64,000 nucleotides of DNA from Mytilus edulis (Eukaryota), in contig NC_092354.1 of NCBI RefSeq assembly GCF_963676685.1, forward strand, positions 21,576,001 through 21,640,000, in the 5' to 3' direction. Numbering within the stretch: position 1 is the first letter of the stretch; each line of letters begins with the position of its first letter. Below, piece after piece: positions 19,798 to 48,406 of this stretch. The notes beneath the pieces are model-generated. The model ran no database searches. It saw only the letters and a list, made by a program, of their open reading frames with translations, and had not been told where the DNA came from. A program made the translations under genes and the position numbers.

Positions 19798-19816
19798 ATG
19801 TCATTCCAAATCACAT
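19798..19816 (+). CDS. Exon 1 (MSFQIT, start of signal peptide)
   Basis: aaaccATG context; T|gtaagt phase-1 donor; joins exon 2 to give MSFQITYCVVFLFLNNLSAA. Confidence 0.65.
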
Positions 19817-22800
19817 GTAAGTCTCTTGTTTTTGTTTTTATTTGAAAATGTGCCATTTATAGAAGGAATTGTGTATGTATAAAAATATATGTGGCTGTGG
19901 TCGGAATCGTGGACGTGTACATATGTACGTCTGCAATCGTTGCGTCATAAGGTAATACAGATAAATGAAGAAAGTTCAAAAAGTACAGTTCAAGATCATT
20001 CAAGATCATCACATGTATTAGTAGTTATTAAAGGTACCAGGATTATAATTTAATACACCAGACGCGCGTTTCGTCTACATAAGACTCATCAGTGACGCTC
20101 AGATCAAAATAGATGTAAAACCAAACAAGTACAAATTTGAAAAGCATCGAGGATCCAAAATTCCCCAAAAAATATGCCAAAACGGCTAAGGTTATCTATT
20201 CCTGTGATAAGAAAATCCTTAGTTTTTCGAAAAATTCAAAGTTTTGTTTACAGGAAATTTATAGAATAAACGATATTTATGCCAACACCGAAGTGTGGCC
20301 TACTGGGCTGGTGATACCCTTTGGGACCGAACAGTAGTGTAAATAGTTATCAAAGGTACCAGGATTATAATTTAATACGCCAGAGGCGCGTTTCGTCTAC
20401 ATAAGACTCATCAGTGCAGATTTGACTTGAACATAAAGACTCTATTTAAATTTCAGCAATATGAAAATGTGGTTTGACTTAATCGAGGACGAGGATCTAA
20501 TTCCCTTTTTTGCACTTCATGTACATATACAGTGAAACCTGACTAAACCGAACCCTTTCGGGACTTGAGATTTTGTTCGGTTTTGGCAGGTATTCGGTTT
20601 GATCAGGTTCACAATGCATAAAATGTGATATCGATTGGTCTTCAGAACAAGTTTGGATTAGACAGGTTTCCGGTTTATTCAGGGTTCGGTTTTATCAGGT
20701 TTCACTGTAGTTACTTATAAAAACATTCCAAGAGCACACAGATTATGTAAAAAATGTGAAGTCCTAGATGATGAATTTCATTTCTTTTTGTATTGTGACA
20801 TTAACATATCTTTGCGTTCTAATCTTTTTGCTTATCTAAAAGACTATGTACCATTTTTCAACATCTTGATGCATTCAATAAACTTAAACACATTCTAAAC
20901 CCCATTCCTGAACTTGTTTGTCATATTTGAGTCTTCATTAAACAGTCTTTAGAACTGAGGGGGTCAGACCCGTGTCAGGCAAGGTTATGATGGTGTTTTT
21001 GATATATAAACATTTATAATTGAACTCTTAATGTTCTATTATTCTATATATTGTATTATATTGAATTTCATTGTATTGCATTGTATTACATTGTATTACA
21101 TTGTAGTGTATAAAATTATTGTTTGATTGTATTGCTTGACCCTTATGATCCCTTATGGGTGTAATTTTGCAATAAAGATTATTATAAAACGTTATTGATC
21201 ATACATTATCTAAATCTACTGAAAACCTAGGGGTTCCTTTATTTTTGTATTCTTCAATTTTTCAGACAATGTTCCTCTATTCATTGTGTATTTACCCATT
21301 ATAGTCTTCTGACTATTTTTTTGCATCCAATTATTCTCTATTCTTTATTGTTTCTGCCAACTTTTCTGTACCCCCCCACCACCTTTATTCTGCACTTTTA
21401 CTGAGCCAATTGGCCGTTTCAGAATCTAAAGCATCATGGGTAATTCCATCCAATTATTCTCTATTCTTTATTGTTTCTGCCAACTTTTCCGTACCTCCCC
21501 CCTTTATTCTGCACTTTTACTGAGCCAATTTACCGTTTCAGAATCTAAAGCATCATGGGTAATTTCATAGTTCGTACCCAAAATGAAAATAACGTCACGT
21601 CATTGGTTAAATTTCCATTGTTTATGACATTTTTAACCAATCAGGACGTTTTGGTGTACATTTTTGAAAATATTACCCAGGATGCATTAGATTCTGAAAA
21701 GGCGAATTGTTTATTATGTAAACCTCACCCAGACTCACAGTTATGTTGAAATTGTATGGTGCCATGAAGAAAAACATGAATTGCATTTCCTATACAGAGT
21801 TTGATTATTGTATAGTTTTACTTTCATATATTTTATTCATTTAGAATAAATAGAACACTATCCTAAAAAGGTGTACCTGTTCTATTGTCAACATTCTATA
21901 ACAAGATATGGATTCTATAATATAAAAGAACTATGAAAGAATTTACTTTCGTGTACTTTCATTTTTAAAATGTTTACGTACAGTATAAAGACAAAGTATT
22001 GCCATTTAAGAATTGAATGCTTCTTTTTGTAAATTTATTGGGGTGTAAAAGCGTTGACCGAAGTACATTTTGTATGAAGCGCGGCAGCAATGCAACTGCT
22101 TACGGAATAACACGTGATGTGCAGTTAGCCAATCAGAATAAAATATTATAATGAAACATACATCTAATGTAATCATGAACAAATATTACATCTTGTATTA
22201 AGAATTAGATATTTAATGAATAATATATGTTCTTTATTTAATTTAAGTTATTTTGAATAATTGCTTATTTTTGTACAACCTTCTGTGGTAACTAATTCGC
22301 GTATTCGTAGAACGAGAACACATTAAAATGGTAGCCTCTTGAAGGTGAGCGACTCGGATGAGAGGTGGAAATTTGGACTGCCACTGACAAATAAGGGTAC
22401 TTTTGATAAGGACCGATTTTTTTTCTTGTAATTGGCTACCTGTGGTTCCCGTAAAATATATTTCAATGATCTTTACGCACAAGAGAGTATGCTAATCATC
22501 TTATATGAGGTATCGAATTGCACGATCTCATTTCAAACGAAATGGTTGCATATTTTCACATCCCGCATAGCAAAACGCTGGCCAATTTAGTTGTATCCTT
22601 TATACGGCGAAACCGGTAACAATTTTGCCATCCCAATTTGCTTTCAGGGAAGTTTTATTATTCATTCATAGAGCATTTCCATTGTAGATTGTGTTGTTTT
22701 CCTTTTTTTGAACAACTTATCCGCAGCTGGTAAGTTTTAATGAATTTAATTATATTTGGCAACATTCTTGTTTACTGTATATTTAATTGAATTTGGCAAC

Positions 22801-25800
22801 TTTCTTATTTATTGTATATATAGTTAGTCGTATTTTGCAACATCCTTGTTAACTGTATAGTAAGTTGTATCTGGCAAATTCTTGTCTACTATATACTAGT
22901 AGTTAGTTGTATTTGGTAATTATTGTTCACTGTATAGTTACTTGTATTTAGCAATTTTCTTGTTTACTGTATAGCTAGTTGTATTGTATTCCGTGTATTG
23001 ATAGTTGCTGTCTTGAATACTGTCCAGTTCGTCACTGTCTTTATACAGTACAAAGGTAGTCGCAGGCCCGTAGCCAGGAATTTCTTTCAAAGAGGGGGGG
23101 GGGGTGTATTTGGACTCATGAACTCGACTTTAACAGTCACAATTTGAACAGAACGTTGACTTTAACAGTGCTTATTTGGTTGCAAAGGGGGGGGGTCGTC
23201 CGAACTCCTCGACCCCCCTGGTTACGGGTATGCAGTCTTAGATAGTTAGTTGCTTTGTGATATTGTTAGTTGATATATTTCCTACAGTATAGTAAGTTAC
23301 TGTATACTGTTGAATTTCTGAATCTCAAACACATTTAAATACTTTTATTTATTTTCGCAATGATTCGCAATATCTCGTTTTGTTTTCAAGCTGAGATTTT
23401 TTAACAAACTGTCATTTCAACAGCAGAACACGTACAATTTTCTAGTGATATTCCGGAGCCTGTATTTTAGTGGTTGTCGTTTGTTTATGTGTTACTTATT
23501 TGTTTTTCGTTCATTTTTTATTAAGATAAGGCCGTTAGTGTTCTCGTTTGAATTGTTTTACATTGTCATATCGTGGCCTTTTATAGCTGACTATGCGGTA
23601 TGGGTTTTGCTCATTCTTGAAGGCCGTACGGGTGACCTAAAGTTGTAAATGTCTGTGTCATTTTGATCTTTTGTGGACAGTTGTCTCATTGGCAATCATA
23701 CCACATCTTCTTTTTTATATATATATTTTACTCTAGGGAAACAAAATATTAAGATAAAAGTATGTTCATCTGTAAGCAGAAAATAAAATATTTGTTCATG
23801 GTATTATAAACGCTTCAAACTTGATTAAATCTCTATTTCAGACGGTGGGTTAACATGTTTGAGTTGTAAGCACATGGTACAGCCCGGCGATTGTTTCAAA
23901 CTGACGACATGTGGCGACCACGAGGTAAACATTCAGATAAACTGTGACTTTTAGACTAAGAACAGCAAACAAACGCTCTTATTTTGCTATTTGTGTTTAT
24001 GCTGTCATGAATGGATAGCGCATATCCGTTTTTTTCTTCTATGTTAAACGGTGTTTTGGTTTAGAATGAGAAATAAAATATCGGTGATAATGAAGAAAAC
24101 TGTTTCATATACTGTAAACCAACTTATTTTCGCGGATACTTTATTTCGCGTTTTACCCTTTCTTGACCACTTCGCGGCTATTTAATTTCGCGATTTTCTG
24201 ATTACTTGATGAAGTTTAATAAGGAAAGATCCATTTTTTAACAAATTCGCGAAAATAAATCGCTCGCGAAAATAAGTTGGTTTACAGTAAATGGATTGCT
24301 GAGCAGTTACTAAAAATCAGAGTAATTACAAAGCATTTAGAAAAGGTTAAAAATGCGCTTTGTGAACATTCATAAGTATCTATCTGAAAATAAGAAGTGA
24401 TTACCAATGAAACAACTGTCAATCAAACAACGTGGTACCTAACACCTTCACTAAAATTAATTTGGCTCGTTTAATTTTCTTAAAATTTTGACAAAGTATT
24501 TACTTTGACCCTTTGACAAAAATGTAAACAAAAATCCAAAAAATTGAACCAACCGTTTAATCAGAAAAATTACACTGGTTATATAGCAGTTTGACAATTA
24601 CTTATTTTGATCATTGGAAAGCTGAATATTCCCTTAAGAACACAGACGACGTGCACAAAGTTGACGGCAACTGTAAAATGCGCTTTTTAAATAGTTTTAT
24701 ACAACCGTCATTTTAATATTATTGAAAAACGTCATTAAAACGTTCTGCTGATTTATCTCCCTGTAGTGTTAGGTACCACCTTAAGGTCTTAATTTGTTCA
24801 ATACAATTTTATTTTATCTTACTTTATGAAAAACAAAAAATAACTGACATGCACCTACGACAAACGGCATTACAGGCTCCTGTCTCAAGCCAGATACATG
24901 CAAAATGTTAGCGAGCGTTGTTGATGACAATTGTAATTGAATTTTATGACAATGTGAAGGAAAAATGTGTGCTGTACTTATTGCTTTTGGGGAAGGTTAA
25001 CTTTCTGGTAGTAAGACCCGTCACGGCCAGGCTGGGAAACTGAATAGGCAAATGCTCACATTAAATCTGTACCGATACAGTGTGTTAAATGTCTTCCTAT
25101 TTACACCATAACCAATTGTGATGCTTCTACTAAAGGGGTGATAAATAGAACATGCATACATACCCCCCCCCCCCCCCCCAAAAAAAAAAAGAAAAAGAAA
25201 AAAAAGAGCAGTAGATACGAGCATCGCATGTTTAAAGATAGTCGGACGTATTTATCGAAGGAAAATTCTTTCAATATAATATACGTATCACAAAAACAAG
25301 AAAGCGCGTATACGTAACGTTTAATCACATAACAAATGCAGCCTCGGGATTCGATTTAAGGATTTCACCATACTTATATTATTTCAAAAATGATTCATTT
25401 CAGCAATGTTACTTGAGACGTTATGTGACGTCCTCCGGTACAACATGGTATGATGTTGGATGTTTAGATAATACGGTACGTATAGACTGGTACTAACCTT
25501 CTTTTTTTTTGGTTTTCTGGTACAATATTATAAGTTACAGGAACACACCCGTGATATCTCGGGTCCCTGACTGAATTAAAGTATATAACTATGCGTAAGC
25601 CTTATTTTGGTATTGGTATTGTCATCTGATAAAGTCATGCCGATTATAAGATACACAGTTTTTCTGCTTTCAAATCTTTCTGTTTGAACCCGTCGACCTG
25701 GAACTTATCAATTATTGGTAATATTAATTATTTGGAAAACAAAAGGTCCTGGAATGGAGTATTTAATCAACAGCATTGACCTATATAAGTTGTAAATAAA

Positions 25801-28800
25801 GTTGAATTCTGTGATTCGCTGTTTAACGTCATGCCCGCTAACAAATACAATGATTGAATTTAATAGTGTCAGTCCTGTGATTATGACCCGTGTATATAGC
25901 AAAATTCATAAATACACCGTTTGGTGGTGCGCGCAGATAAGGTAATAGGTAACAGGTGAATATACTATTGGTATCGGTATCGGATTCGACCCGGAACTTG
26001 TTAATTATTGGCAATATTAATGATGTGGAAAACAAAAGGGTCTGGAATGGTGTAATTTTTTAATCTACACCATTGTCCTATATTAGCTATATATAAAGTT
26101 GAATTCTTTGATTTGTCGTTTTTATACCCGATGACGGCTGACACATTGGACCTCGTTATTATAGATATGGTTCGTTACTGACCCCCTACGGACTCGTAGG
26201 GGGTCACAACGTGACGGCGTTAAACAAATCACAATGTGAAAATGTACCCGCGGTGCGATAATGTACAATGTTGGATGTTTACAATACGTAAAGACTTATA
26301 GTCGTCTTTTTTTTTTTATCGTGGATGTTTTGAAGTGTTGTGTGGTATAAAAGCATGATATGCTGTTGGATGTTTAGATAACACAGTGCGTATAGACTGG
26401 TACCCATCTTTTTTTCTAAAATGATTTTTAGTGTTGTACAGGTACAATATTATATGATGCATAAATATCTTAAATTGCATTCTGAATTGGTTCATTGGTA
26501 TCGGCTAACTTTTCTTGTTTTAAATACAGAAGTTTGACTGGTTTAAATAATGTACATATGAGCTAAGAAATATCTATTGATAAATTGTCAAAATTTGGTT
26601 AAAATTCAGAAATGTGCAGCTATATCCGGGCTACCAAAGACTGTTCGTCCAACAACAGTAGAAAATAGTAGAACACTTCCTCCATCGATCATAGGCAAAC
26701 GTCAAAACGAGGTTAATATGACACAATTGCCCATTATGGCCAGACACACATTGCCGCCATCTATAATAGGAAAGCGTCAAGATGCTGACGGGGAAACAAC
26801 GTTGTGTGAGCACTGCTGTAATAGTAGTACTATATGTAACACCGGGGGATATTGTGGATCTTTGTGTAAGTGAATTAAGAAACTGTATACATGTACCAGT
26901 CATACTCCAGAAATTAGAAAAAAACAGACCAAACACGAGTCATAATTAAGCATTTCGCGGTCATTTTCATATCCGAGACTGCAATTGGCATGATGACAGC
27001 GTTTTGATAAATTGTATGGCCTTATTATCATTTAGTTCGTGATTTGAAATGTTTCCAGTCATGAACTACACACTCTTTTTTATACGTTTTGCTTTATATC
27101 TATTGTACCGTTATATCAGGTTACTTGAAGTAGGCCGATTCCAATGTTGTTGTTTTTCTGACAGCGTGTCTTGTTTGCACTCATTTATTGTTGTTATTTT
27201 CTTTGACAACTTGTCAATGACATTAGTCACAGCTATTCATGTTTACATTATCATAAACAACTTTTTGTTGTTTACATTAACAGATTTAAACATAGCTGTG
27301 TTTATAAAATTGTCAAAGAGACAACAACCCGACCAAAGAGCAGAAAACTGCCGAATGCCAACAATGGGTCTTCAATAGAGCGAGAAAATTCCGCTCCCAA
27401 AGGCGTGCGTCAGATGGCCCGTAAACAAAAAAAATATGTACTAGTTTAGTGATAATGGGACGTCATACTTAACTCCGAAATATATAATAGAAACTAACAT
27501 TAAAAATCATACTAGACTGAACCTATATGATTACATCTACACTTCTTGTTTACACTACTAGTAACAGCTTTTCGGTTTTACAGCTTTCCATTTTACTTGA
27601 ACAGCTTTTCGTGTTTTTATTATCAGTCTTTTATGATAACATTTCATATCTATATTAACAGCTTTCCATGTAAACATTAATAGCTTTTAAAAATCCCGAT
27701 CATAAAAGGATGCATGCATTAAAAGTTTTTCATATTTAGGGTAACACTTTTACATGCCTGCATTACTAACTTTTCATGACGTTAATAGCTTTTTGTGTGT
27801 TCCTTAACAACTTTTCATGTTTTCATTAACAGCTTTTCATGTTTACATTAACAGCTTTGAGCAATCCTGGTCCGATATGTTACAGTTGTAAAGAAGCACA
27901 GACCGCTGACAGTTGTGACCAGATTGTTCAATGTGGCGAAGACGAGGTCTGTGCTTTAGATAGAATTTTAAATGTAACACGTCTTCTGATTGGCTGAAAG
28001 CGTTTTGTCTATCAGCTCAGAGACACAATTATGTCATGTGAACACGAAGTCATCAACGTTTTTATCATTATTTACTCCTTTTCAGAAATAAATCATAGGA
28101 CTTAAAGGAATATTTTTAATAGTTATTCTGTCTATTTGAAATAACGTAAAAAATGTGGCGCACACGTTTAAATAACCCATTACGCGCGTTATTCAGCGTG
28201 TACCACATTTTTTATGTTATTTCTTGATAATTTAATTTTGGATGTAACGCATCTTTTGATTGGCTGATGTTGTTTTGTTTATCAGCTCATAGATATAATT
28301 TAGTCATGTGAGCGTGACGTCACATCATCAACATTTTTTAAATGAATGAATGAATGATTTTATTCTCATAAACTAGTTCATAGCTACAGAGAAAATAACA
28401 GTTCATATTTAATACGTATTTTGTTTCGCATGTGTGAAAATAAATAACATTATAATATTATTAAAGTTCTTCTAACCAGGAGAACAGACTTTCAATGATA
28501 TGTATCTTATAAATCTACACAATTTTCTAGTTCTTCAACATTTTCAGATGAGAATACATTTCTAAATTTAATAATCTTAGCATTTTGTTTACAATAATGT
28601 GGTAAATATTTTTCTCTTTCAATGTTAAAAAAATTGCATGACAAAATGTAGTGAAATTCATCAGCAATATCTCGTGAGCTGCAGAGATGACAAGACCTTT
28701 CCGATCTCGAGATAGTTTGCCACCTTCCCGTCCCCACTGGCATCTAAATTTACACAAAGTACATAAAAAATTAAAAGGCAAAATCGATAAATACTTTTCA

Positions 28801-31800
28801 AATTTAAATTCAGTCTTGAAAATTCTATAACATTAACTTTTTGAGGATTGCTGTAAATCTGCACACCACTCTTGTCGAAATTGGTCTTTAAGCATTTGCT
28901 CAATACTTAATTTCATCCATTTTTTGTTTAAAAAATCTTGGCAATGCCATACATTTGACATGCCACATTCATCAAATATTTTCTCAATACATAACATCTA
29001 TTTATTTCCAATACCACAATTGTTATAGTTAATGTATAATAATTTATAAAGTATACGTGATAATTTATCTTCATTCGTATTATCAAGAAGGTAACACAAA
29101 AAGTTGACCATTCGTAGTTTAGCATATAGAGAAATGAGGTATCTCCCAAGTTCTCCATAAATCATAAAATTTGGAGTCGAGCTTTTAAGTTTTAGAATGT
29201 GTCTACAGAATTTCAAATGCACTCTCTCAAGTATATAAAATTTTTCGTATTCCCCAGCCCCGTATAGAAGAATAGTACAACAGCTTTACTAAAATTTATG
29301 ATAAAAGGGATGATTTTTCATTTCCTATCGTTAATTATCCGTTTTTAGATGGTGACGTTCCCTTGTCACCATCTTACGGTGTTTATATATCTCAACTTGT
29401 ACGATTCGCTCGTGTATGTAACAATGTTTTAGATTTTAACGAGAGAAATTTATGTATTACTGAAAAATTATTACATCAGGGTTTTCGATATCACAAACTA
29501 GTCAAAACATTTACTAAATTTTATCATCGGTATAAAGACATCATTCGTAAATATAGCTCAACATGCAGACTTCTAATACGTTCAGGTATTTCACATCCAA
29601 TTTTTTATGGTAATATTCTTTATAAAGCACAAAGGTGTCAGTATTCACCTCAGAAACTTACAAAACCTTTGAATAGACTTATTAAGAAGGGATATAATTA
29701 CGATACTGTTGTCAAGTCATTAAAGATTGCATATTTTGGCTTTAATATTGAGTCATTGATAAGGTTTTTGCATCGGAACTAAACACATTTATTCTAAAAA
29801 CAGTTGTTGGCATGACACGGGTTATGTTCTTCTCATATATGTTATGATGGTATGATACTAAACCCCTAACGGGAAGGATTGTGCCTGATGTTCATATGAT
29901 GAAATCATAATCTTTCAGTCAGTTTAATTGAAGTCTGGAGCTGGCATGTCAGTTAACTGCTAGTAGTCTGTTGTTATTTATGTATTATTGTCATTTTGTT
30001 TATTTTCTTTGGTTACATCTTCTGACATCAGACTCGGATTTCTCTTGAACTGAATTTTAATGTGCGTATTGTTATGCGTTTACTTTACTACATTGGTTAG
30101 AGGTATAGGGGGAGGGTTGAGATCTCACAAAAATGTTTAACCCCGCCGCATTTTTGCGCCTGTCCCAAGTCAGGAGCCTCTGGCCTTTGTTAGTCTTGTA
30201 TTATTTTAATTTTAGTTTCTTGTGTACAATTTGGAAATTAGTATGGCGTTCATTATCACTGGACTAGTATATATTTGTTTAAGGGCCAGCTGAAGGACGC
30301 CTCCGGGTGCGGGAATTTCTCGCTACATTGAAGACCTGTTGGTGACCCTCTGCTGTTGTTTTTTATTTGGTCGGGTTGTTGTCTCTTTGACACATTCCCC
30401 ATTTCCATTCTCAATTTTATTATCAAACATATCTAGTTGGCATTCGATCGATAAGTGATTCAATCTGCTCTTCTTGATAACACTATACATAGCTTTAGTT
30501 GCTTGGTCTCGTAAATATTTCCTAGTTTCGAAAAAAGATGCATTTCTAAGAAAATAACGCGTTTTCATGGTTTACTCCGGTTTAAAATGGAAGTTAGTAT
30601 TACATTATAAGAAATAACTGTAATATTTCATCTGTCTATTCGAAATAACATTAAAAAAAATGTGGCGCACACGTTTAAATAACCCACTACGTGGGTTATT
30701 CAGTGGGCAACTCATTTTTGATGCTATTTCTTCATAGATAGAACAAATATTACAGTTATTCCTTAAATAGCTACATTTGTTTGTAATTTGCCAATGTTTG
30801 TAGAGTAAGACTTTGGTTGGTTTGCTTGCTTTGTTTATATAAACGTTTTCAAAAAGCATTGTTATCAAGATTGACATCTGCGAACAATATAGATAGGCAT
30901 AGTTAAACCTGTATATATCATATCTAAATTTGATTTGGGTAGAGGTAGCCTTTAAGGAGGTAGACCTAGGTTAAGGAAGATAACTCTTTAAATCAGTCAA
31001 CCGTTTGTAAAAGTCAAGTTCACCAATGTATTTTAAGCATTTACCTGAAACAGATTGAAAATAATCTATGTAACCTAGAAGCTTAGAATATGTTTTTGAA
31101 AATGGTTGACACAAACGTACTGATGATTTTAAGAGTTATTTCCCTTAACCTAGGTCTACCACCTTAAGTGTAGTGAGCATTTATCTCTTATCAGCTTAAT
31201 TGGCGAAGCTTTTCATGAGCGTAATTTTCTTGTTAAAACTGTTGTCATAGTTTGTCTAGTTGGACTGGATGCGGGGATGTTTACCTACAGCACAAACTTG
31301 GTGGATATACCAGCAGTGGTGTCAAAAGAGTTTGCACCGTGAAAACTATTGAATATATGTCACCTGCGAATTTTCAATATTAAATACTAGTAAACACCGT
31401 CTACAAAGCACATATGTGTACTAATAGTAAATTATTTTGACTTCTAATTCGATGTCATGTTTGTTCGTTTGTTTCAGAAATGTTTTATTGGACAGGTATT
31501 TAATCGACTATCTCAGGAAAAAAGATGGACACATGGGTGTAAGAGTAATAAAACGGTTTGTACAATCTATAATAATGACAAGGATTCTGTTTTTCAATAT
31601 TTTACCGCTGTAATATTAGTATAAACATTGATGTGAAATTAACAATATTAATCTTCCATGGTATAAACAAACGGTAAGTTGCGGATATTCTATACAAAGG
31701 GATACTGGTCACAGTGTTTTAGCAAAAATAACAGGTATGTGAGTTGACGATTTCTCGAATTTTTATGATTTTTTTTGCATGAACCGATGGTATACGTCCG

Positions 31801-34800
31801 AGAAGACAAAAGTTAAGAGTGACGTCATGACTAAATTTTATACCGAAATCGTATTCTTTTATTTTTAATGTCCACCATAAACAGCTAAAATGAATTCGGT
31901 TACATCAGTAATCATTATATCCAATGACGGAAATTTTAATGGCAATAAAATATTATTTTGAAAGAAATCTTTTTTTTCAATCGGATTACAATACAGATCA
32001 CTTGCCCATGCTTTGCCTGTATGATCTGATGTAGCATTCCGTTTTTACTTTCTGTTCTGGTAATTAAATTTAAGGTGGTACCTAACACTACAGGGAGATA
32101 ACTCTGTAAAATCAACTGAACGTTTTAATTACGTTGCAGACAACCTAGATGTTAACAAAATAGATGAACTTTCAGTTAGACTGGGAGACATTGATCCCAA
32201 AAATACAAACATTGTAACAATTAATGATATAGTTGAAAATTGTAATAGTATTATTAAGAATGCTGCTGAATGTGCTGATATGTTGATTAAAACTACTAGC
32301 AATGTCAAGAAACATGGTTGTAAAAAATATAATCATTGTAAAAAATATTTTAACAGTGAATGTTATACAAAACGCAAAGCTTATCGTAAAGCAAAAAAAT
32401 ACCATTATAGAGTACGTTCTGTTGTTAATCACAATGATTTGGTACGTAAAAGCAAGGAATATAAGAATATACTGAAAAAACAATTTTGTGAATTTCAAAA
32501 GGCGTTTATAGGTAAACTCAGAGGTCTGCGTACCTCAGATCCTAAATCATATTGGTCACTACTAAATAAAGGTTGTGAAAAAGGTAAAGCTACTCAGCAA
32601 AAAGTAGCTATGAATGTATTTTTTGATCATTTTAAAAATTTAAACAATGTTGTAAATGATATTGATATTGTTTTACCAGATAATGTTACAGAATATAATA
32701 CTGTTATTAATGAGCCTATAAGTGAAAAAGATGTGTTAGATGCTATAAAAACATTAAAGAACGATAAAGCTTGTAGTAATGATATGATATTAAATGAATT
32801 TTTGAAACATGGAGCTGTCAAATTATTGCCTGTTTATGTCAAGATTTTTAATATTATTTTTGAAAGTGGTATTGTACCAGATTCTTGGTCTCAAGGTTTT
32901 ATATGTCCAATATACAAAAGCAAAGGTGACCCCGCAAGTGCGGACAATTATAGAGGTATCACTATACTTAGTTGTTATGGAAAACTATTTACATGTATTC
33001 TTAATAACAGATTATTCAATTACCTTGAATGTTTGGGTTTATTATGTGAAGAGCAAGCTGGTTTTCGGAAAGGCTATGGTACTGTTGACCATATTTTTAA
33101 CTTAAAATGTCTTATTGATATGTATTTATTTAGAAGGAAAAAACTGTACTGTGCTTTTGTAGATTATCGAAAAGCTTTTGATTCTGTAAACAGGGTATTA
33201 TTATGGCAAAAACTGTTACGTAATGGTATTGACGGTAAAATGCTTATTATTGTACAAAACTTGTATAAAAATGCTAAGTCTTGTGTTAGATCTGGTAGCA
33301 ACTTTTCAGAATTTTTTGCCTCCAATGTAGGAGTTAGACAAGGTGAGAATCTCTCACCTTTATTGTTCTCAATTTTTCTAAATGATTTGACAGATTTTTT
33401 GTCACATGCTTATAATGGTCTCTCTGATATATGTAATATGTCTCATTTATTATTTGATAATGATGATATTGAAGTTTTCTTTAAATTGTATTTGTTATTA
33501 TATGCTGATGATACTGTTATATTTGCTGAGTCTGCTACTGAATTACAATCTGCATTAAATGCCATGTACTTGTATTGTGAAACATGGAAGCTTAGTGTTA
33601 ATGTAGCCAAAACCAATATTGTGATATTTTCAAAAAACAGACAGGGTGAAAACACTCAATTTTTCTATAACAATGAACCAATAGCTGTGTTAGATGATTT
33701 TCTATATTTGGGTACAGTTTTTTCTAGAAAAGGTACTTTTCACAATAATAAGGCTAGACTTGTACAACAAGCTAGAAAAGCTATGTTCTATGTTTTATGT
33801 AAAGCGAGAAAGCTTAGTTTGCCAATAGATATTTTGTTACAATTATTTGATGCAATGGTGGCACCTATTTTGTTATATGGTGCAGAAGTATGGGGTTATG
33901 AAAATAATGACATTATTGAGTCTTTGCATTTAGAATTTTGCAAGTATATATTAAAGGTTAAAAAATGTACGCCAAATTATATTGTATATGGCGAACTTGG
34001 TAGAACACCCATGTCTATATGTATTAAAGCTAGAATGGTTGGTTTTTGGCAGCGAATTTTAAATGGCAAGAAAGAGAAAATATCTCGAACATTGTATGAT
34101 ATGTTGCATAAACTGAATGAAGGTGATGTGTACCATTCTAAATGGTTATTATATATAAAGGATATTTTAATTGAATGTGGTTATGGAAATTATTGGTATG
34201 ACCAATCTGTATTAAGAAATATAAACCTGTCTAAAAATGTAAAGCAAGTTCTTCATGAAAAATTTGTAGAAGGTTGGAAATTACAAGTATATGACTCACC
34301 GAAGTGTATAAATTACCGTATTTATAAATCTGATTTTAAATTTGAGAATTATCTCACTGTACTTCCACCTGATTTAATGTATAATCTTACTAAGTTTAGA
34401 TGCGGTAGCCACAAATTGCCAATTGAAGCTGGTAGATTTTTTAGTATCAATAGAGCTGAAAGAATTTGTGATCTTTGTAATAAGCAAGAACTGGGTGATG
34501 AATTTCATTATATATTTAATTGTAACTTTTTTACGCAAGAAAGACTAAAGTTTATACCTGATCATATATATAAAAACAAAAATACTGTAAGCTTGTCAAA
34601 TTTAATGAGTAGTCAAGATAAATATGTACTTGTTGGATTGGCAAAATTTTGCAAAATTGTTATGTCTGTATTTAAATGATAATATATGGATATTACTCTT
34701 TCATCTGCATACACCTACTTCATATGTATATATGTTAGTTCATGCATTACTGTTGTTTGTTAAATTTATTGTTTGTTAAATTCATTGTACTATTATGCCT

Positions 34801-37800
34801 CATGTGAGGCCTTTAGTGAAAATAAAAGTTTCAAGTTTCAAGTTTCAAGTTGCGTAGATAATGAAAGCTTCTCAGTGATGAGAATAAGTGTTTGTGAAAC
34901 TGCTATATAACTAGTGTATTTTTTCTGATAAAACGGTTGGTTCAAAATTTTTGAAATTTTTATATTTTTGTTAAAGGCTCAAAGTGAATACTTTGACAAA
35001 ATTTTAAGAAAATTAAACGAGCCAAATTAATTTTAGCGAAAGTGTTGGGTACCACCTTAAATGGAATATTACAGTTATTTACCTCGTAAAAAAATGAAAT
35101 ATCACACACATGATTTTTCGGTATTCAAATGCAGTTTCTTTTGATCTAGTTGTCTGCAAAGTTTCATAAAAACAGTGAGACTACACTTTTCATACTTTTT
35201 ACCTGAAAAAGGAATTGCACAATCCACGATATGAAAGATTCTAATGTTTGTTTACACAGCAAAGCTCATAAGATGTTTTAAGCTATGTTAGGTAAGACAA
35301 AGCAAACATTATAAAGTAATGCTAATTTTGGTTTTTACATCGAGGCTATTTTTAATTGTAGTGTGCATATACACAAGGGAAGAGAGACACAGACGATGGA
35401 AACAGTCAAATATGTGAGGAGTGTTGTGAGGATCACTTGTGTAATAATGTGTGTACAAACTTCGTGGACTGGAACGCCCCCTTTGTACCGACCACTTCAT
35501 CTTTGAAGACTGATGCGATAACTGCGATGTCTACCCTTGATATTATAAAAACAACGTTGCCGACGACAAAAACAACCACATTGCCGACGACAAAAACAAC
35601 TGCATTGCCGACGACTAAAACAATAATACCGACAACAAAAACAACAACCATGCCGACGACAGAAATACTAACAACTAAAACGCCGATGACAAAAACAACA
35701 ACACTGCTGACGACGAAAAAAGAAACAACACTGCCGACGACGAAAAAAAGAACAACCATGCCGACGACAACGACAACCACGTTGCCAACAACCACGCTAG
35801 GTAGGACTTACAGTGAAACCTGTTTAAACCGAATCTCTTCGGGATTAATTTGTTCAATTTGTGCGGATGTTCGGTTTTGTCAGGTTCAAAACGCATACAA
35901 TTTGATATGACGATGCTTAAAACATGGTTGGTTTATACAAGTTTTCGGTTTATACATAATTGGTTTAGTCAAGTTACACTGTATAGACACAGTTTGATAC
36001 AATTAGTAAACGCTAATTCAGATGGGGGCGCAACAAACGCTAATTCGAATGGGGGCGCAACATACGAGTACCCCTCTATAACAATTAATAAAACTGTAAT
36101 TTATATGTTACGTTACAACCAATTAATTTGTAAAAATATAGTCAGGTAACTCTCATTTTCGGTAGCATTCCACAAAATCAAATCCTGGGATCGCACATGT
36201 CTCCTTCAACACCAGGAATGATACTAGGTGCTCAGGAACGATATGTATTTCCTGCTTTTTCACTCATCCAGGCAATTTTATTATTTAAACTATAAAAAAA
36301 AACACCAAAACAAACAAAAAAACTGCGATCACAAAAATCTTATTAATAAATCGTGCCGAAAATGTGAAAAGTATTGCACAGACGGTGTTGTTATAGTTAA
36401 ATGGGCCGGACAGTTGCCTATTATTGCTCACATCCACCTCATTTGAACGTTGATGGATATTTGTCTCATTGGCAATCGTACTATAATCCCTTAGTTTATT
36501 TACGCTAACCAACTTTCAAATGTTTAGGTTTAAGTGAAGAACATGAGAATGGTAAATCCAGAAAATGTTATTGTAAACCAACTTATTTTTGCGAATTCTT
36601 ATTATCGCGTTTAGCCCTTTCTAGCCAGCTTCACAGCGTCTTAATTTCGCGGTTTTCAAATTCACTTGATGTAGTTAGATAAGGAAAGATCCAAGGTTAA
36701 ATTTTCTCGATTTTTATTCGCGTTATTTTTTTCTACTCGCGAAAGTCGCGAAAATTAGTTGGTTAATCGTTGTTTGATTACATACACTGTAAAGTTGTAA
36801 TTATCTACCGTGATTAAATTATAGACCCTGCTGTCATGGTTAATTGTGATTTTGAGGCTGATCTTTGTAATTGGCACCAAGATAAAATGGATGATGGTGA
36901 CTGGAGAATTCACTCAGGTCCTACAGCTACGGATAAAACTGGACCGGATAGTGATCATACATTGGGCAGTGGTAAGATTAGCGACAACATTGCATCCTTT
37001 GAATATTTTAAATTGTCTATAGACTTTTGATGAGGTAAATATATTATAGACGGATCTGTTCAGATTATATTACTGAAGACGAAGTTTTCGATACTGACCG
37101 TCAATCTTTATAAATATAGAAAGTCTGAAACATTGAAAAATAGAAACAAAGCTTCAGATACTTGGAATACCCTTTGATTCACATGATCGTCATGACCAAT
37201 GAAAAAAAGAAGAATGCTACACAGTATTAATAATGTATTACATCATTTGCATATATTACCATCTTATATTAGTACTGTTGTGCAAATCTTTCCTTTACAC
37301 TTACATAATGTTTTCCTTATCTGAATAGCATTGTTCATTCCAACCCTGGTACCTTTGATAACTATTTACACTACTGGGTCGATGCCACTCCTGGTGGACG
37401 TTTCGTCCCCGTGGGTATCACCAGCCCAGTAGTTAGCACTTCGGTGTTGACGTGAATATCAATTATATGGGCATTTTTATAAATTTCCTCTTTACAAAAC
37501 TACGAGTTTTTCGAAAAACTAAAGATTTTCTTATCCCAGGCATAGATTACTTTAACGTTTTGGGCACTACTTTTTTGAATTTCGGGTCCTCAATGCTCTT
37601 CAACTTTGTACTTGTTTGGCTTTATAACTATTTAGATCTGAGCTTCACCGATTAGTATTATGTAGACGAAACGCGCGTCTGTCGTATAACATTATAATAT
37701 CCGGTTTATATTAAATTTCTGACTTGTCCTTCATGCATACTTCTATTTATACCTACCTGTCTGAAACGTCGAAAAAAATGATTATCAGGTTGTCAATTAG

Positions 37801-39783
37801 TGTAAGCTCTCAGAGTTTACCATTTAAGCACTACAATCTTTTCTTTTTCTATGGGAAAAAGACATTATTCATACTTAAATGTTTGTCCCTAAAATTTTAT
37901 TAACTGTGAATTTGCATTCAGATATCGCAGATCAAATTATATTCGTTCATAGTGTGTTAATTTTCGTTTTTTGATTGCGTTAAGCCTGCCAATTGATATT
38001 TTATCGTGTGTTTTACTATGTTGTGATGTTATGCTATTGTTTCAGAAAAAGGTAGAAGGTTTGGTACCATTAAAACGTTTAATCCCGCTGCAAATGTTTG
38101 CACCTGTCCTAAGTCAGGAATCTTCTGTACAAATGTTGTCAGTTGTTTATGTAATTTATACGTGTTTCTCGTTTCTCGTTTTTTATATAGATTAGACCCT
38201 TGGTTTTCCCGTTTGAATGTTTTTCACTAGTAATTTTGAGGCCCTTTATAGCTTTTTGTTCGGTGTGAGCCAAGGCTCCGTGTTGAAGGCCGTAGATTGA
38301 CCTATAATGGTTTACGTTTATAAATTGTTATTTTCATGGAGAGTTGTCTCATTGGCACTCACACAACATCTTCCTATATCTATTATATAGCCGAATATTA
38401 ATATCATTTACTAAATGAATATATCATTTTATTTTTATTGATAATTTTTCCCTCTTTATTAGAACAAGGACACTATTTATACATAGAAGCATCGGATATG
38501 AATTATCAGAACTTTGTTCGATTGCTTTCCGATGATATTGCATGGCCACAGAGAACATGTTTAACGTTCTGGTATCATATGTATGGACATTTCATAGCAT
38601 CTTTAAGTGTTTATTTAAAGGTAAGTAAAACCAGTCAGAATATAGAACATAAGCGTATATGAAACTTTAATCTCTCTATAGAACACTTAAAATTGCAAAG
38701 GATAGCAAATGCCTACATGCACAGTTGATCGAACTATATCACGCATACAATGGCAAAAAAAAACCTCTATGTACATGCACCGTCGATTGCACTATAGAAC
38801 ACGTTGTAAAAAATAGCATATGCGCAAGGAACCACAATCATACTGTAGAACACATAAAAAGCAAAATAGGGAGCGTACATACGTAAAGAACTGTCGATCC
38901 TACTACAGAGCATAAAAATCAAAAACAGAAGCGTATTCGTACAGAAACCGTCAATCGCATTTAAAAAGAAGCATTTGATTTGATTACAGTAGCCATTAAT
39001 CGCGTCACGAAGCATATACAAGTCAAAAAGGCAGCGTATACGGATAGCATTACAAGGTACTGACAAAAAAGGGGAAACAAATGCAAATACATACAGAATC
39101 TGTCGATTGCTCTACAGAACACAGGTAGCATATGCGTACCATAACCCCACTATGGAGCACATCAACAATTAAATTGTAGCATATATGAGTACAGGGATTG
39201 AAGTCATAAAACTTTGCTCAGTGTTTGGAGCACAAAAGTCATGCTCCAAACATGAAATACAGCTTTTTGATTGGTTGATTTTCGAGTACGAGTACAAAAA
39301 TCTGACTCGAAAGTTTTATGACCGCAAGGCCTGGAATCGATACGTCGTAATGATTTTTAAAAACATCTCCACTGGCCACCTTTTTAGATAGTGGTAAAAT
39401 AAAACAATAAAGAAAAACAGACAAAATTTATAAAAACACAAAACAAACATAAATGGAGATTGAATTTGGTTGATCTATTATCGGAATGAACTCGTATTCT
39501 TTGACCTCAATACATTTGGTTGAATAAAACCATTGGCTGACTAGGTTTTTATTTTTTTTGTTTATATTATTTCAAAGTTTACAAATTGATATTAAAGGAT
39601 AGTGATGGTAATTTACAAAAATTATGGAGTCAGTCTGAAAACCATGGCAACAACTGGTTACCAGCTAAAATAAATTTACCAGATACTTCAGGACAAATAG
39701 TAATAGAGGGGTACAGGGGAGCAGATATACATGGCGATATAGCAATAGACGATATTGTACTGGTTCGTAATTGTGGTCCTTAA
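19798..39783 (+). CDS. Secreted protein: signal peptide + 2x Ly6/uPAR-like 12-Cys domains + Thr-rich mucin stalk + MAM domain (11 coding exons, ~523 aa)
   Basis: Exons 19798-19816, 22688-22729, 23842-23924, 25404-25475, 26610-26865, 27855-27946, 31478-31555, 35362-35800, 36825-36971, 38463-38620, 39598-39783. All junctions are GT-AG with matching phases; total 1572 nt with no internal stop. Confidence 0.85.
20022..20416 (-). mobile_element. Retrozyme-like / Penelope terminal-repeat element with two hammerheads 322 nt apart
   Basis: ~73-bp direct repeats at 20022-20094 and 20344-20416, each containing the hammerhead; decayed family members at ~3790-4015, ~37345-37700 and ~56560-57060. Confidence 0.8.
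20055..20098 (-). ncRNA. Minimal type I hammerhead ribozyme
   Basis: Minus strand GCGUCA CUGAUGA GUCU-UAUGU-AGAC GAAA CGCGCG UC UGGUGU: intact core with a palindromic minimal stem III. Confidence 0.85.
20530..20707. mobile_element. 177-bp MITE copy
   Basis: Same TIR and TA TSD. Confidence 0.9.
20712..21185 (+). mobile_element. LINE 3' fragment (…LCKKCEVLDDEFHFFLYC…, 3' UTR, AATAAA + (att)n tail)
   Basis: C-terminal Cys/His motif as in the other LINEs; inverted homolog at 2210-2690. Confidence 0.75.
21528..21708. mobile_element. MITE with ~38-bp TIR; its left junction is tandemly duplicated (21324-21445)
   Basis: aatt…tttcagaatctaaagcatcatgggtaat / attacccaggatgcattagattctgaaa…aatt. Confidence 0.7.
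22688..22729 (+). CDS. Exon 2 (signal peptide hydrophobic core YCVVFLFLNNLSAA)
   Basis: ttccattgtag acceptor, G|gtaagt donor, phase 1-1. Confidence 0.7.
22755..22985. repeat. ~39-bp intronic minisatellite
   Basis: tttggcaacattcttgtttactgtata units, 6 copies. Confidence 0.8.
23842..23924 (+). CDS. Exon 3, LU-like domain 1 start (DGGLTCLSCKHMVQPGDCFKLTTCGDHE)
   Basis: tatttcag acceptor, GAG|gtaaac donor; LxCxxC three-finger N-terminal pattern. Confidence 0.85.
24112..24287. mobile_element. TA-flanked MITE (TIR CTGTAAACCAACTTATTTTCGCG); relatives at ~36571-36770 and ~59270-59450
   Basis: 23-bp TIRs, TA TSD. Confidence 0.85.
25404..25475 (+). CDS. Exon 4 (QCYLRRYVTSSGTTWYDVGCLDNT)
   Basis: catttcag acceptor, ACG|gtacgt donor, phase 0-0; C...GC pattern. 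Confidence 0.85.
25541..26206. mobile_element. Interspersed element, possibly a non-autonomous Helitron/Helentron; partial copy at ~10178-10400
   Basis: Shared AACACACCCGTGATATC… start; internal duplication; GC hairpin at 26179-26206. Confidence 0.5.
26610..26865 (+). CDS. Exon 5, LU-like domain 1 end with 2x TLPPSIIGKRQ and C-x2-CC-x5-CN
   Basis: Within ORF 26577-26873; attcag acceptor, T|gtaagt donor; CC...CN motif typical of Ly6/uPAR domains. Confidence 0.9.
27855..27946 (+). CDS. Exon 6, LU-like domain 2 start (SLSNPGPICYSCKEAQTADSCDQIVQCGEDE)
   Basis: taacag acceptor, GAG|gtctgt donor; paralogous to exon 3 with the same phases. Confidence 0.85.
29288..30418 (+). mobile_element. 5'-truncated Penelope-like retroelement (RT C-terminus/thumb, no C-terminal GIY-YIG; Naiad/Chlamys-like)
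   Basis: TKIYDKRDDFSFPIVNYPFLDGDVPLSPSYGVYISQLVRFARVC… open to TAA at 29782; 3' part recurs at ~56690-56945 (+) and ~27308-27520 (-). Confidence 0.8.
29833..29899 (+). promoter_or_regulatory. SECIS element (form 2) in the 3' UTR of the Penelope-like element
   Basis: tcatat…ATGAT GGTATGATACT AAA CCC-ctaac-GGG a AGGATTGTGCC TGAT…atatga: AUGA/GA core, 11-bp helix II, apical AAA, mini-stem, helix I. Confidence 0.8.
30956..31163. mobile_element. TTAA-flanked MITE (relative at ~48950-49145)
   Basis: ttaa|GGAGGTAGACCTAGGTTAAGG…CCTTAACCTAGGTCTACCACC|ttaa. Confidence 0.8.
31478..31555 (+). CDS. Exon 7 (KCFIGQVFNRLSQEKRWTHGCKSNKT)
   Basis: gtttcag acceptor, ACG|gtttgt donor; paralogous to exon 4. 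Confidence 0.85.
32138..34848 (+). mobile_element. 5'-truncated young LINE (CR1/L2-type non-LTR retrotransposon)
   Basis: Uninterrupted RT frame from ~32139; AATAAA followed by a (gtttcaa)n tail; 5-bp duplication gttgc at 32133-37 and 34849-53. Confidence 0.95.
32280..34679 (+). CDS. LINE ORF2 reverse transcriptase (endonuclease lost by 5' truncation)
   Basis: NYRGI, QAGFR, DYRKAFDSV, GVRQG..LSP, YADD motifs; C-terminal ERIC-x2-C…DEFH…C. Confidence 0.95.
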   Translation: MLIKTTSNVKKHGCKKYNHCKKYFNSECYTKRKAYRKAKKYHYRVRSVVNHNDLVRKSKEYKNILKKQFCEFQKAFIGKLRGLRTSDPKSYWSLLNKGCEKGKATQQKVAMNVFFDHFKNLNNVVNDIDIVLPDNVTEYNTVINEPISEKDVLDAIKTLKNDKACSNDMILNEFLKHGAVKLLPVYVKIFNIIFESGIVPDSWSQGFICPIYKSKGDPASADNYRGITILSCYGKLFTCILNNRLFNYLECLGLLCEEQAGFRKGYGTVDHIFNLKCLIDMYLFRRKKLYCAFVDYRKAFDSVNRVLLWQKLLRNGIDGKMLIIVQNLYKNAKSCVRSGSNFSEFFASNVGVRQGENLSPLLFSIFLNDLTDFLSHAYNGLSDICNMSHLLFDNDDIEVFFKLYLLLYADDTVIFAESATELQSALNAMYLYCETWKLSVNVAKTNIVIFSKNRQGENTQFFYNNEPIAVLDDFLYLGTVFSRKGTFHNNKARLVQQARKAMFYVLCKARKLSLPIDILLQLFDAMVAPILLYGAEVWGYENNDIIESLHLEFCKYILKVKKCTPNYIVYGELGRTPMSICIKARMVGFWQRILNGKKEKISRTLYDMLHKLNEGDVYHSKWLLYIKDILIECGYGNYWYDQSVLRNINLSKNVKQVLHEKFVEGWKLQVYDSPKCINYRIYKSDFKFENYLTVLPPDLMYNLTKFRCGSHKLPIEAGRFFSINRAERICDLCNKQELGDEFHYIFNCNFFTQERLKFIPDHIYKNKNTVSLSNLMSSQDKYVLVGLAKFCKIVMSVFK
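35362..35800 (+). CDS. Exon 8, LU-like domain 2 end (CAYTQGKRD...CEECCEDHLCNNVC) plus mucin-like (TTLPTTKT)n stalk
   Basis: ttgtag acceptor, G|gtagga donor; ~24-nt Thr-rich repeats in ORF 35437-35910. Confidence 0.9.
35811..35981. mobile_element. Diverged relative of the 177-bp MITE, 10 nt downstream of the exon 8 donor
   Basis: ta|CAGTGAAACCTG…AAGTTACACTG|ta. Confidence 0.75.
36825..36971 (+). CDS. Exon 9, MAM domain N-terminal part (CDFEADLCNW...TGPDSDHTLG)
   Basis: MAM signature CDFE-x3-C-x-W and TGP-x2-DHT; G|gtaaga donor. Confidence 0.92.
38463..38620 (+). CDS. Exon 10, MAM domain middle (GHYLYIEAS...CLTFWYHMYG)
   Basis: MAM signature motifs; AAG|gtaagt donor. Confidence 0.92.
39598..39783 (+). 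CDS. Exon 11, MAM domain C-terminal part (…GNNW…GDIAIDDI…CGP*)
   Basis: GDIAIDDI MAM motif; stop TAA at 39781-39783. Confidence 0.9.
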   Translation, partial: DSDGNLQKLWSQSENHGNNWLPAKINLPDTSGQIVIEGYRGADIHGDIAIDDIVLVRNCGP

Positions 39784-41150: not shown

Positions 41151-42431
41151 AGATATGGTGTAATTTGAGCTAGAGTTATTTCCCTTGCAATTGGTCGTCA
41201 TGTTTTGCGGTGTAATTGGGTGCCTTCATAATTGATACCCGATAAGAGATTCATGCTAGATCTGATGAACCCTGGCAAAAAAAGTGAAATATCATGGCGT
41301 TAAAAAGGTATGAACCCTTGCTATCATAGTTTCAGTTGATTTTTTTTTAAACCAACCAGTCAATGTTTTTAATAAAAATGATAATGATAAAAAAAAAACA
41401 TTTCTAAGAGAGAGAAGACGAACAGTCCAACACAAACAAAAATAGTCCACACAACAAAAACGTCATTGCAAGTGATTGAACCCATAAAAAATGGGGGAAA
41501 CAACAGATGTTGGATTACCTAAAAATCATTGGATTCTGATTTGGCTTTATCAATTTGTCTATGTCTGGGCGATAGTATTTCCCTTTCGGAGCATCTTGTG
41601 ATCACCCCAAGTTTTTGTTAGGGTTCCTATTGCTTAGTCTTTAGTTATGCTTTGTGTACTATTATTTGCCTGTTTGTCTTTATCTTTTAGCCATGGCGTT
41701 GTCAGTTTATTTTCGATCTAGAAGTTTGACTGTCCCTCTGGTATCTTTCGCCCCTCTTTTTATAATAGTTATGAGTTCTAACAAGAATCAGATCTTGGAG
41801 TCATCGCTTCAATCGAAAATTATCTTTAAATGTCGACCAGTCAATAAATGACAGAAAACATCATATCTAAGAGAGAAAGAAAAAAAACCAGCCACACACT
41901 GTTCCCTGTCCCCCCCCCCCAAAAAAAACCCAGTCCACACCAAAAAAAAGATCGTGCTACTGAACCTATACAACAGGAAATACACACATACTCACAATGG
42001 GCACAGATGCTGTAGTTCCCTAGAAATTAATAGATTTTGATTAGGCTTTATCGGTTTGTTTTCTTATGCGCGAGAATATTAGAAATGACGTTATTTTCTA
42101 TTTAGTTTATACTTAATTTGCCAGTTTTATGTTCACTTGTTAAACAAAGAGACAAATGGATCGTTTAAGTTTATCAGAAAATATTGATTAAGACAATATC
42201 ATTATATTGTACTGAATTTTGTTTAATTGCTTCGATGTAAAAATATGTTGGTTTATGATGTTTACATAAATAGTTATGTCCAATATCATATTTAGTTTAA
42301 GTAAAGAGCAATCACATTTTTGTCATTCTACCCAGAATGCAGCGAAAACATATACTGAAAGGAATCATTTTAATAGTTTAAAGTGGTCCATTAGCAATTT
42401 TATCTCATGAACTAGCTTCAATCGCACAAAC

Positions 42432-42731
42432 ATGAATTTTTTGTTTAGAATTATAATTGTTTTTGGAACTATCCTCATAACGCCTCGTTGTTGTCAAACA
42501 AAAGAGAAAATATTCAGCAGAACTTCTGGTTTTCGAATAATGGCGTCTTTGACAGAACCTGAAATAAGTGTAGCCATTATGGAAGATTGTGTTGTTTACT
42601 GTATGCAGACAACATTATGTGTTGCTGCTAATTACAAACCTGACAGTAACATCTGTGAACTATCGAGGATCCATCCTAATGACCCGAGTTTCGAATTACG
42701 TATGAGACCAAATTGGAGTTATATATTCTGA
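42432..42731 (+). CDS. Small secreted PAN/apple-domain protein, paralog 1 (99 aa, intronless)
   Basis: Hydrophobic N-terminus; EDC-x3-C-x5-C-x3-NY-x6-CELS PAN pattern; homologous to three other ORFs in the window. Confidence 0.85.
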   Translation: MNFLFRIIIVFGTILITPRCCQTKEKIFSRTSGFRIMASLTEPEISVAIMEDCVVYCMQTTLCVAANYKPDSNICELSRIHPNDPSFELRMRPNWSYIF

Positions 42732-47128: not shown

Positions 47129-48406
47129 AAATCCATATCCGTACTATTATTTTGTCTTTGTCTTTTTCATTTTTAGCCATGGCGTTGTAACTTAATTTTC
47201 GATCTATGAGTTTGACTGTCCCTCTGGTATCTTTCGCCCATCTTCTGTAATAAAGTGTCTTCTCTGAATAGAATAGATTCAATAGACCCGTGTGAATAAA
47301 CTTACTAGTATCATAGATCATGTAGATACCAGGATTGAAATTTCGTATGTATCCATAGTGTATTTTGATATCCTCATTTTTCACATTTTGTTTTGATTAC
47401 CTGGGGAAAAATTTGAAAAAGGGAACCATTAATAAATATTCATCCCGTAGTATGAATTTGATTAATGTTTATAATTCCGTTCTAAAGAATATGGCCATCA
47501 TAATGCACATTAATGTTCTCGGAATAAACAAGATTTGACATAAAACCAAATGAATGTATTCACAGTAAAAAGAAACATCAATTTGTACACCTCAAACGGA
47601 TTTTTGCGTAACGACGCGATAATCTGATCGTGTGTATTGCCAATATAAGTATTGGCATGATGAAGCACCAGTTTTTTTATTATACCTTTAACATATGAGA
47701 ATTTGAGTAAAAAACGGAGAACATGAATTTGACAGCAAATGCATTACCTCTAGAATAATACAAAATATCGTAATCAGCACACAGGTTATTGCGTATTGGA
47801 CATTAGTAAAACAGGCAATTGTAAAAGAGGATTTTTGAATTAGGTACTGGACATGAGCTATACTAAATTGATCCTGTAATTCCTACACCATTCTGTACCT
47901 CAAACAGTCGTATAAAACAACGTCTTCATTATCTTCTTGTTTAATTCAAAATAAGGGATTAGATAGGAAATTGAAAAATCATGCGATACTTGATTCAACA
48001 AACCCATTTCAACATAAAACTGAGTCTTCTTACTACATTTCTTTTCTTAAATCCTGATTTGTGTTTTTTATGCCTGATGTATCAATGTATTGAAATCAAA
48101 TACATCTTGAATGTCAAAACATTGATAAAATCATTCAACCCAGTGTGATTGGTTTTAAAACAAATTAGTTTAATTTCTGGATTAACAAATATAAATAGAA
48201 TCAGGGTTTTCAATTATTTCAAACTGGTAACAAAACAAACAAAACAGAATTATTTCATTATATATTGTTATACTTCCAAACTAAAACCTCTAATTTCCGA
48301 ATCAAAGCATACTAGTACTACTGAATTATACAGTGCTTTTAATTTCGAATATGTTATGGTTTTTTTTTTAGATGATTAATTATACCCCACCATTCAAAAG
48401 TAGCTA

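Follow-up and report, generated by a model that had tools for sequence, protein, structure and literature searches.

Tandem twelve-cysteine LU domains with candidate prohormone-type processing sites in a probably secreted MAM protein of Mytilus edulis

The window analysed here, 64,000 nucleotides of Mytilus edulis DNA (assembly GCF_963676685.1, contig NC_092354.1, positions 21,576,001 to 21,640,000 of the forward strand), contains a plus-strand gene of 11 exons (19798-39783; Table 1) encoding a 523-residue product with no internal stop. The protein is composed, in order, of a signal-peptide-like N-terminus, two LU domains, a Thr-rich stalk (Thr at 47% of 107 residues) and a MAM domain, the last matched by its Pfam model with an expectation value (E) of 6e-39; the span 23842..35460 assigned by a first-pass annotation of the window omits the 5′ exons, the stalk and the MAM domain. 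Strong hydrophobicity over 11-residue windows is confined to those that start at residues 3–8 of the protein. No membrane-like segment follows the MAM domain (the top 19-residue hydropathy past residue 25 is 0.82), and the C-terminal hydrophobic anchor signal of the glycosylphosphatidylinositol-anchored Ly6 type is absent, the protein terminating with the MAM domain. P0001, the public M. edulis protein, agrees with the product in every one of the final 492 residues; its entry takes an internal Met as the start and is without the signal-like N-terminus and the first two Cys residues. The LU pair has been hidden because orthologues are named for the stalk or the MAM domain (mucin-like, nephronectin-like).

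Exons 1 and 2 are predicted only, from likeness to the Mytilus trossulus orthologue and from good splice sites. Exons 3–8 are all bounded by AG and GT, and the joints 3–4, 4–5, 5–6 and 6–7 are spliced in transcript contigs of three of four sequencing runs, one of the three being recorded as RNA. This bears out the proposal that exons 3–5 and exons 6–8 share the intron phases 1-0-0-1. The fourth run, represented by raw reads covering about 18% of it, showed no depth in three exon-holding bins and none of the joints from 3–4 to 6–7. Joint 7–8 is absent among the matches listed; two contigs carry exons 5 and 8, spaced as for exons 6 and 7 together.

The two LU domains comprise residues 26–154 and 166–245, and each contains 12 Cys residues, as the first-pass annotation had it. 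In both, the ten ancestral LU cysteines are in order and the tenth precedes Asn. Domain 2 is 80 residues long, within the typical LU length of 60–90, whereas domain 1 reaches 129 through its 63-residue loop III; among 83 homologous first domains the longest loop III has 58. An AlphaFold2 model of both LU domains of the orthologue P0002, calculated with 84 sequences as input, had a mean predicted local distance difference test score (pLDDT) of 83.8 and a predicted template-modelling score of 0.74; the cores exceeded a pLDDT of 90, and loop III scored about 50 (domain 1) and 64 (domain 2). The top Foldseek matches of the model were uPAR (the best, E 2e-5), C4.4A and TEX101. In VIA-align, GPIHBP1 (Z 8.3, root-mean-square deviation (r.m.s.d.) 3.4, 77 residues aligned) and CD59 (Z 8.1, r.m.s.d. 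2.9, 69 aligned) ranked best and the first 39 of 50 rows were three-finger proteins; the Z values are middling taken singly, but the clear matches are all of one fold. The Atlas comparison gave a template-modelling score of 0.83 to a mollusc LU cluster. As modelled, the fold of both domains is three-finger, and loop III is predicted to be floppy or disordered in both. The structure prediction thus returned the fold proposed for the domains, and the suggestion of a variant three-finger family is upheld by the agreement of the model with all three comparisons and by a HMMER search that recovered 269 representatives at E<=0.001.

Because word-based homologue searches returned only 4, 4 and 7 proteins, the family was drawn from the full HMMER search. 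Counts refer to the best 150 of the 269 matches, of which 148 were used, with the four Mytilus orthologues and the 60%-identical exon P0030 left out; 140 of the 148 contain 258 domains of the 12-Cys type, and the other 8 have no domain fitting the 12-Cys expression. The CN motif formed by the tenth ancestral Cys and its Asn is present in 253 of the 258. The two cysteines beyond the ancestral ten are Cys8, the first Cys of the CxxCC motif, and Cys12, which follows CN. Among 278 domains, 251 have the two together, 24 have neither and 3 have only one. This co-occurrence (275/278) points to a Cys8–Cys12 bond additional to those of the ten ancestral cysteines, in support of the extra disulfide suggested earlier.

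LYPD6 has a CxxCC motif, as does the mussel module, and the LYPD6-type structure 6zso aligned with the model over 85 residues (Z 7.2, r.m.s.d. 5.0). LYPD6 and LYPD6B carry an extra disulfide in loop 3 (accessible part of PMC6600238), and the likeness lies in a disulfide added near loop III; in the mussel module the likely partner of the extra Cys sits after CN, outside the loop. Loop III of the window-gene domains contains no Cys, so an in-loop bond of the LYPD6 type is absent from them. A second LU-like class in the M. edulis genome resembles the LYPD6 arrangement, having CxxCC and a further Cys that lies within loop III but none after CN; its members are L005-L013, L017, L018, L020, L022, L023, L040, L090 and L091, many of them on G000:C2.

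The module is an old mollusc family, found in bivalves, abalone and a chiton and joined, apart from MAM, to partner domains of 12 kinds. Species were named for 25 of 30 homologues looked up, all of them molluscs: 20 bivalves, 4 abalones and 1 chiton. A non-LU partner domain is present in 60 of 100 homologues scanned: C-type lectin in 22, Ig in 20, fibrinogen in 6, EGF in 5, TSP1 in 2, and C1q, ShK, IgGFc-binding, Kazal, kringle, WSC and SRCR once each. At E<=1e-5, LU-clan Pfam models match only 11 of the 100. The three exon types, with the same phases, were found at all five paralogous loci fetched. The first-pass annotation had described a module duplicated in this gene, a view that the family does not support. 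For 164 of 168 domain cores the best non-self match is the domain at the same position in another protein; 106 of 166 other domains give domain 1 of the window gene a better score than its own domain 2 does; and the label of first or second domain changes 5 times on the tree, against 56 when shuffled. The same-position matches and the tree rule out a recent duplication within the gene and, on this comparison of sequences, the tandem LU pair is old.

Loop III of each domain, between Cys7 and Cys8, contains Gly-Lys-Arg (GKR), so that the pair of cysteines named earlier is correct, but domain 1 has two such sites and not one. The last GKR lies 9 residues ahead of Cys8 in both domains; the two loops are therefore not wholly unrelated, as had been claimed for the sequence around the site. 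Across the 258 family domains, loop III contains GKR in 80, Gly-Lys/Arg-Arg in 115 and Lys/Arg-Arg in 170, compared with shuffle means of 2.4, 5.2 and 54, and Gly-Lys/Arg-Arg occurs in 0/258 of each of the other loops. The expectation that GKR recurs in most homologues fails in its literal form (80/258 family domains and 16/58 paralogous exons), and its absence from most homologues is, strictly, the outcome that had been named beforehand as refuting the idea. The broader Lys/Arg-Arg is strongly enriched and is present in most of them (170/258 and 35/58). Conservation of the site's position holds only for the interval between Cys7 and Cys8: within the loop the site begins 0–37 residues past Cys7 and ends 2–55 ahead of Cys8, at least two sites occur in 44 of the 258 loops, and in domain 2 of the four Mytilus orthologues GKR is found in two species and WKR in the other two, both domain-1 sites being kept in all.

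Because the HMMER query itself contained GKR, two controls were made. Among proteins whose best match lies upstream of the site, a partial control, Gly-Lys/Arg-Arg is present in 69 and Lys/Arg-Arg in 100 of 142 domains. A pattern search of the M. edulis genome blind to the loop gave 109 matches, compared with 8 for a control pattern; of the 100 matches read, 17 belonged to the other LU class, 25 were removed by the filter on acceptor or Cys12 (several of the latter resemble genuine members, of which some have and others lack a dibasic site) and 58 exons were kept. These contain Lys/Arg-Arg in 35 and Gly-Lys/Arg-Arg in 21 (shuffles 10.9 and 1.1), or in 23 and 16 of 38 once near-copies are collapsed, compared with 3/17 and 0/17 in the other LU class. 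Six tandem paralogous exons (L072-L077; G000:C10, 52.1-53.1 Mb) share a conserved hydrophobic-GKR site; the loop segment after it is long and changes fast. A minus-strand gene about 150-175 kb past the end of the window (L115-L117; G000:C11) encodes some five LU domains belonging to this family, of which certain ones have and others lack a dibasic site.

Prohormone convertases and the amidation machinery favour a basic pair ending in Arg, no aliphatic residue or Pro after it, and Gly ahead of it where the end is to be amidated. The loop III sites agree with these rules in sequence: the last residue of a basic run is Arg 210 times and Lys 16 times (shuffles 55 and 38), Ile, Leu, Val or Pro directly follows 8 of 218 sites where 55 would be expected, and of 130 sites with Gly 109 have a hydrophobic residue just ahead of it, compared with 26 of 87 sites lacking Gly. 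Enrichment of furin-type sites was sought and rejected, R-x-K/R-R occurring in 8 of 258 domains (shuffle mean 4.2, maximum 11) and RxxR in 25 (28.7).

The protein is likely to be secreted. We consider it probable that a prohormone-type convertase cuts its exposed third loops at Lys/Arg-Arg, that amidation follows at the Gly sites and that disulfides hold the chains together. It would pass through the secretory route that holds prohormone-type convertases; loop III of each LU domain would be cut, and the cut ends would be trimmed and then amidated where Gly precedes the site. Trimming and amidation after cleavage are standard prohormone chemistry. The two pieces of each cut domain would remain joined by the single Cys7–Cys9 bond and the β-sheet. 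From domain 1 a 22-residue connecting peptide would be freed, the same amidated end staying tethered on the first chain, and the secreted form would consist of disulfide-linked chains bearing MAM on a mucin-like stalk. In insulin-family prohormones a dibasic-flanked connecting peptide is likewise removed and the chains stay disulfide-joined; this is an analogy only, as fold and gene are unrelated and the processing suggested for the mussel protein is optional across its family. A further and more tentative step, the weakest of the account, is that the LU pair may be a shared handle for engaging a receptor or other partner, spread by exon shuffling onto recognition or adhesion domains (here MAM) and matured by the cut; the partner-bearing homologues and the constant exon types and phases of the paralogous loci speak for its mobility.

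Hydrophobic-Gly-Lys/Arg-Arg could instead be a conserved linear binding or sorting motif, the flexible loop being left uncut and the protein remaining one chain. In its favour, a third of the domains have no site, and inheritance from one ancestor would yield an equal enrichment. The Arg-last order and the scarcity of Ile, Leu, Val and Pro past the site match protease rules, however, and the multiple sites in many loops and their freely varying position also argue against a fixed motif, which leaves this explanation unlikely.

The two domain-1 sites of the proposed cleavage are each part of an 11-residue repeat, TLPPSIIGKRQ; over 33 bases the two copies have 7 differences, all of them silent, and their flanks cannot be aligned. 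In a simulation an all-silent outcome arose in 4 of 300,000 random draws, a figure that overstates the case because the stretch was picked after being seen. The silent-only differences and the unalignable flanks together suggest selection on residues ahead of GKR, beyond the basic pair. All four Mytilus orthologues and P0030 retain the motif T-x-P-P-S-[IV]-I-G-[KR]-R in both copies, together with the first Gln and an N-glycosylation sequon. If both sites are cut, a 22-residue peptide could be released, its sequence starting with Gln and followed directly by Gly-Lys-Arg. This conservation and the silent repeat would also suit a gene that is mainly a peptide precursor, with the amidated domain-1 peptide as the signal and the folded domains as carriers. 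We regard that as improbable, since release of a Gly-extended peptide is predicted for only 4 of the 44 multi-site loops, PPS[IV]IG occurs in 0 of 258 other domains, the LU cores and the MAM domain are well conserved, and a literature search for the motif, which most subscription papers lay outside, gave unrelated papers only. No double-repeat paralogue stood out in the M. edulis genome, the next match after the gene itself having E 5e-4 over query residues 53-84 only, and searching metagenomes for the P0030 locus gave no confirmed match. It is just as improbable that loop III is bait for extracellular trypsin-like proteases of host or microbe, cut on challenge and not in secretion, for although an exposed, hypervariable basic loop on proteins with lectin, fibrinogen, C1q and Ig domains would fit, such enzymes cut after Lys too and do not depend on a Gly or a hydrophobic residue ahead of the pair, and both these preceding residues and Arg in last place are selected here.

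Several points weigh against convertase cleavage and the account built on it. Evidence of cleavage or amidation at the peptide or protein level was not found, and a binding partner of the LU pair is nowhere indicated by these data. The signal peptide is only a prediction, because exons 1 and 2 are. The LU-clan Pfam scores of the four Mytilus orthologues fall under the curated cut-offs (UPAR_LY6 20.4 bits, cut-off 24.8; Toxin_TOLIP 7.6–18.2, cut-off 21.2), and the Cys8–Cys12 pairing is drawn solely from co-occurrence among related sequences. The site counts, too, were taken over related, non-independent sequences, from a homologue set retrieved with a GKR-containing query. Lys/Arg-Arg is missing from loop III in 88 of 258 domains, none of the 17 shortest loops has a site, and on a poorly resolved tree of 168 domains the site label changes 32 times (shuffles 46). 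The domains without Lys/Arg-Arg and these label changes indicate that processing is not required for the module; the site is common but optional in the family. Because the Gly of domain 2 is replaced by Trp in two of the four Mytilus species compared and is preceded by Gln, there is no conserved amidation signal in that domain.

Table 1 Exons of the LU-LU-stalk-MAM gene, elements of its domain-1 repeat and other features of the window
Feature	Position	Strand	Basis or remark
Exon 1, coding part (start codon, first signal-peptide-like residues)	19798..19816	+	Predicted: match to N-terminus of orthologue P0002; GT donor; open 523-residue product
Exon 2 (hydrophobic core, signal-peptide-like stretch), phase 1-1	22688..22729	+	Predicted
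Exon 3: LU domain 1, Cys1–4, phase 1-0	23842..23924	+
Exon 4: LU domain 1, Cys5–6, phase 0-0	25404..25475	+
Exon 5: LU domain 1, Cys7–12, loop III of 63 residues, phase 0-1	26610..26865	+	Loop pLDDT about 50
First TLPPSIIGKRQ repeat	26673..26705	+	GKR at 26694-26702
Candidate released peptide, 22 codons between the two GKR sites	26703..26768	+	Gln first; N-glycosylation sequon; Gly-Lys-Arg directly after
Second TLPPSIIGKRQ repeat	26748..26780	+	GKR at 26769-26777; 7/33 bases differ from first copy, amino acids same
Exon 6: inter-domain linker and LU domain 2, Cys1–4, phase 1-0	27855..27946	+
Exon 7: LU domain 2, Cys5–6, phase 0-0	31478..31555	+
Exon 8: LU domain 2, Cys7–12, then Thr-rich mucin-like stalk, phase 0-1	35362..35800	+	GKR at 35377-35385
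Exon 9: MAM domain, first part	36825..36971	+	Pfam MAM
Exon 10: MAM domain, middle part	38463..38620	+	Pfam MAM
Exon 11: MAM domain end and stop codon	39598..39783	+	Pfam MAM
Open frame in intron 7, 871 codons	32064..34676	+	Reverse-transcriptase domain (Pfam RVT_1, E 3e-30)
PAN-domain gene	42411..42728	+
PAN-domain gene	49957..50271	+
PAN-domain gene	53844..54170	+
PAN-domain gene	57963..58268	+
PAN-cluster fragment	near 46956..47192
PAN-cluster fragment	near 54385..54738
PAN-cluster fragment	near 58272..58481
Open frame, 220 codons	8718..9377	-	No Pfam match; acidic repeated end

Intron 7 of the gene houses a retrotransposon copy of the long interspersed nuclear element (LINE) type, with short tandem repeats after its open frame; all three contig runs have contigs over parts of the copy, which possibly come from other copies. 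Downstream of the gene lies a cluster of short, apparently single-exon genes, each encoding a hydrophobic N-terminus and one PAN domain, together with fragments of the same kind.

In canonical Ly6/uPAR proteins (CD59, GPIHBP1, Lynx1, uPAR), as set out in the accessible part of PMC6600238, LU domains are single-chain folds and probably not a true mobile module. The mussel-type module shares with them the three-finger fold, the ten ancestral cysteines, CN and phase-1 flanking introns. It differs in being encoded by three exons, with phase-0 introns before Cys5 and Cys7, where the canonical domain has two, split at the tip of loop 2; in its two extra cysteines, its long, variable loop III with a dibasic site and its lack of a membrane anchor; and in its fusion to many unrelated domains. 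LU domains combined with MAM or Ig (molluscs and arthropods) and with C1q or fibrinogen (molluscs) were described in silico in 2026 (PMC13719153, accessible part), and the window gene, LU-LU-stalk-MAM, is of the same kind of architecture. The main text of that paper, whose figures and supplements may list the protein, makes no mention of the 12-Cys pattern, the three-exon layout or the dibasic/amidation site, and these were not found in the literature searched. Secreted Cys-rich precursors with predicted KR/RR sites are known from mussels (accessible part of PMC4558851). Nothing on dibasic processing within an LU domain was found by a literature search that most subscription papers lay outside; the accessible part of PMC11595613 does not mention cleavage, and PMC12236594, on a two-finger conotoxin fold as far as its accessible part goes, was set aside as not relevant.

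Taken to its furthest extent, the convertase reading would make the gene a hybrid of prohormone and recognition protein, a rather speculative proposition. Its LU domains would be opened to disulfide-linked chains with a tethered amidated ...PPSII end, a 22-residue pyroglutamyl, amidated and glycosylated peptide would be freed, and the LU pair would be a neuropeptide-style handle shuffled onto lectin, Ig, fibrinogen, C1q and MAM domains from before the split of chitons and bivalves onwards. The family also flags many entries now called ‘uncharacterized’ or ‘mucin-like’, whose N-terminal module lies mostly under standard Pfam cut-offs. A mollusc line of LU domains spread over a dozen recognition domains, with prohormone-type cutting signals within the fold, would connect processing of neuroendocrine style with the large set of secreted proteins of lectin, Ig and fibrinogen type in bivalves, most of them unannotated.

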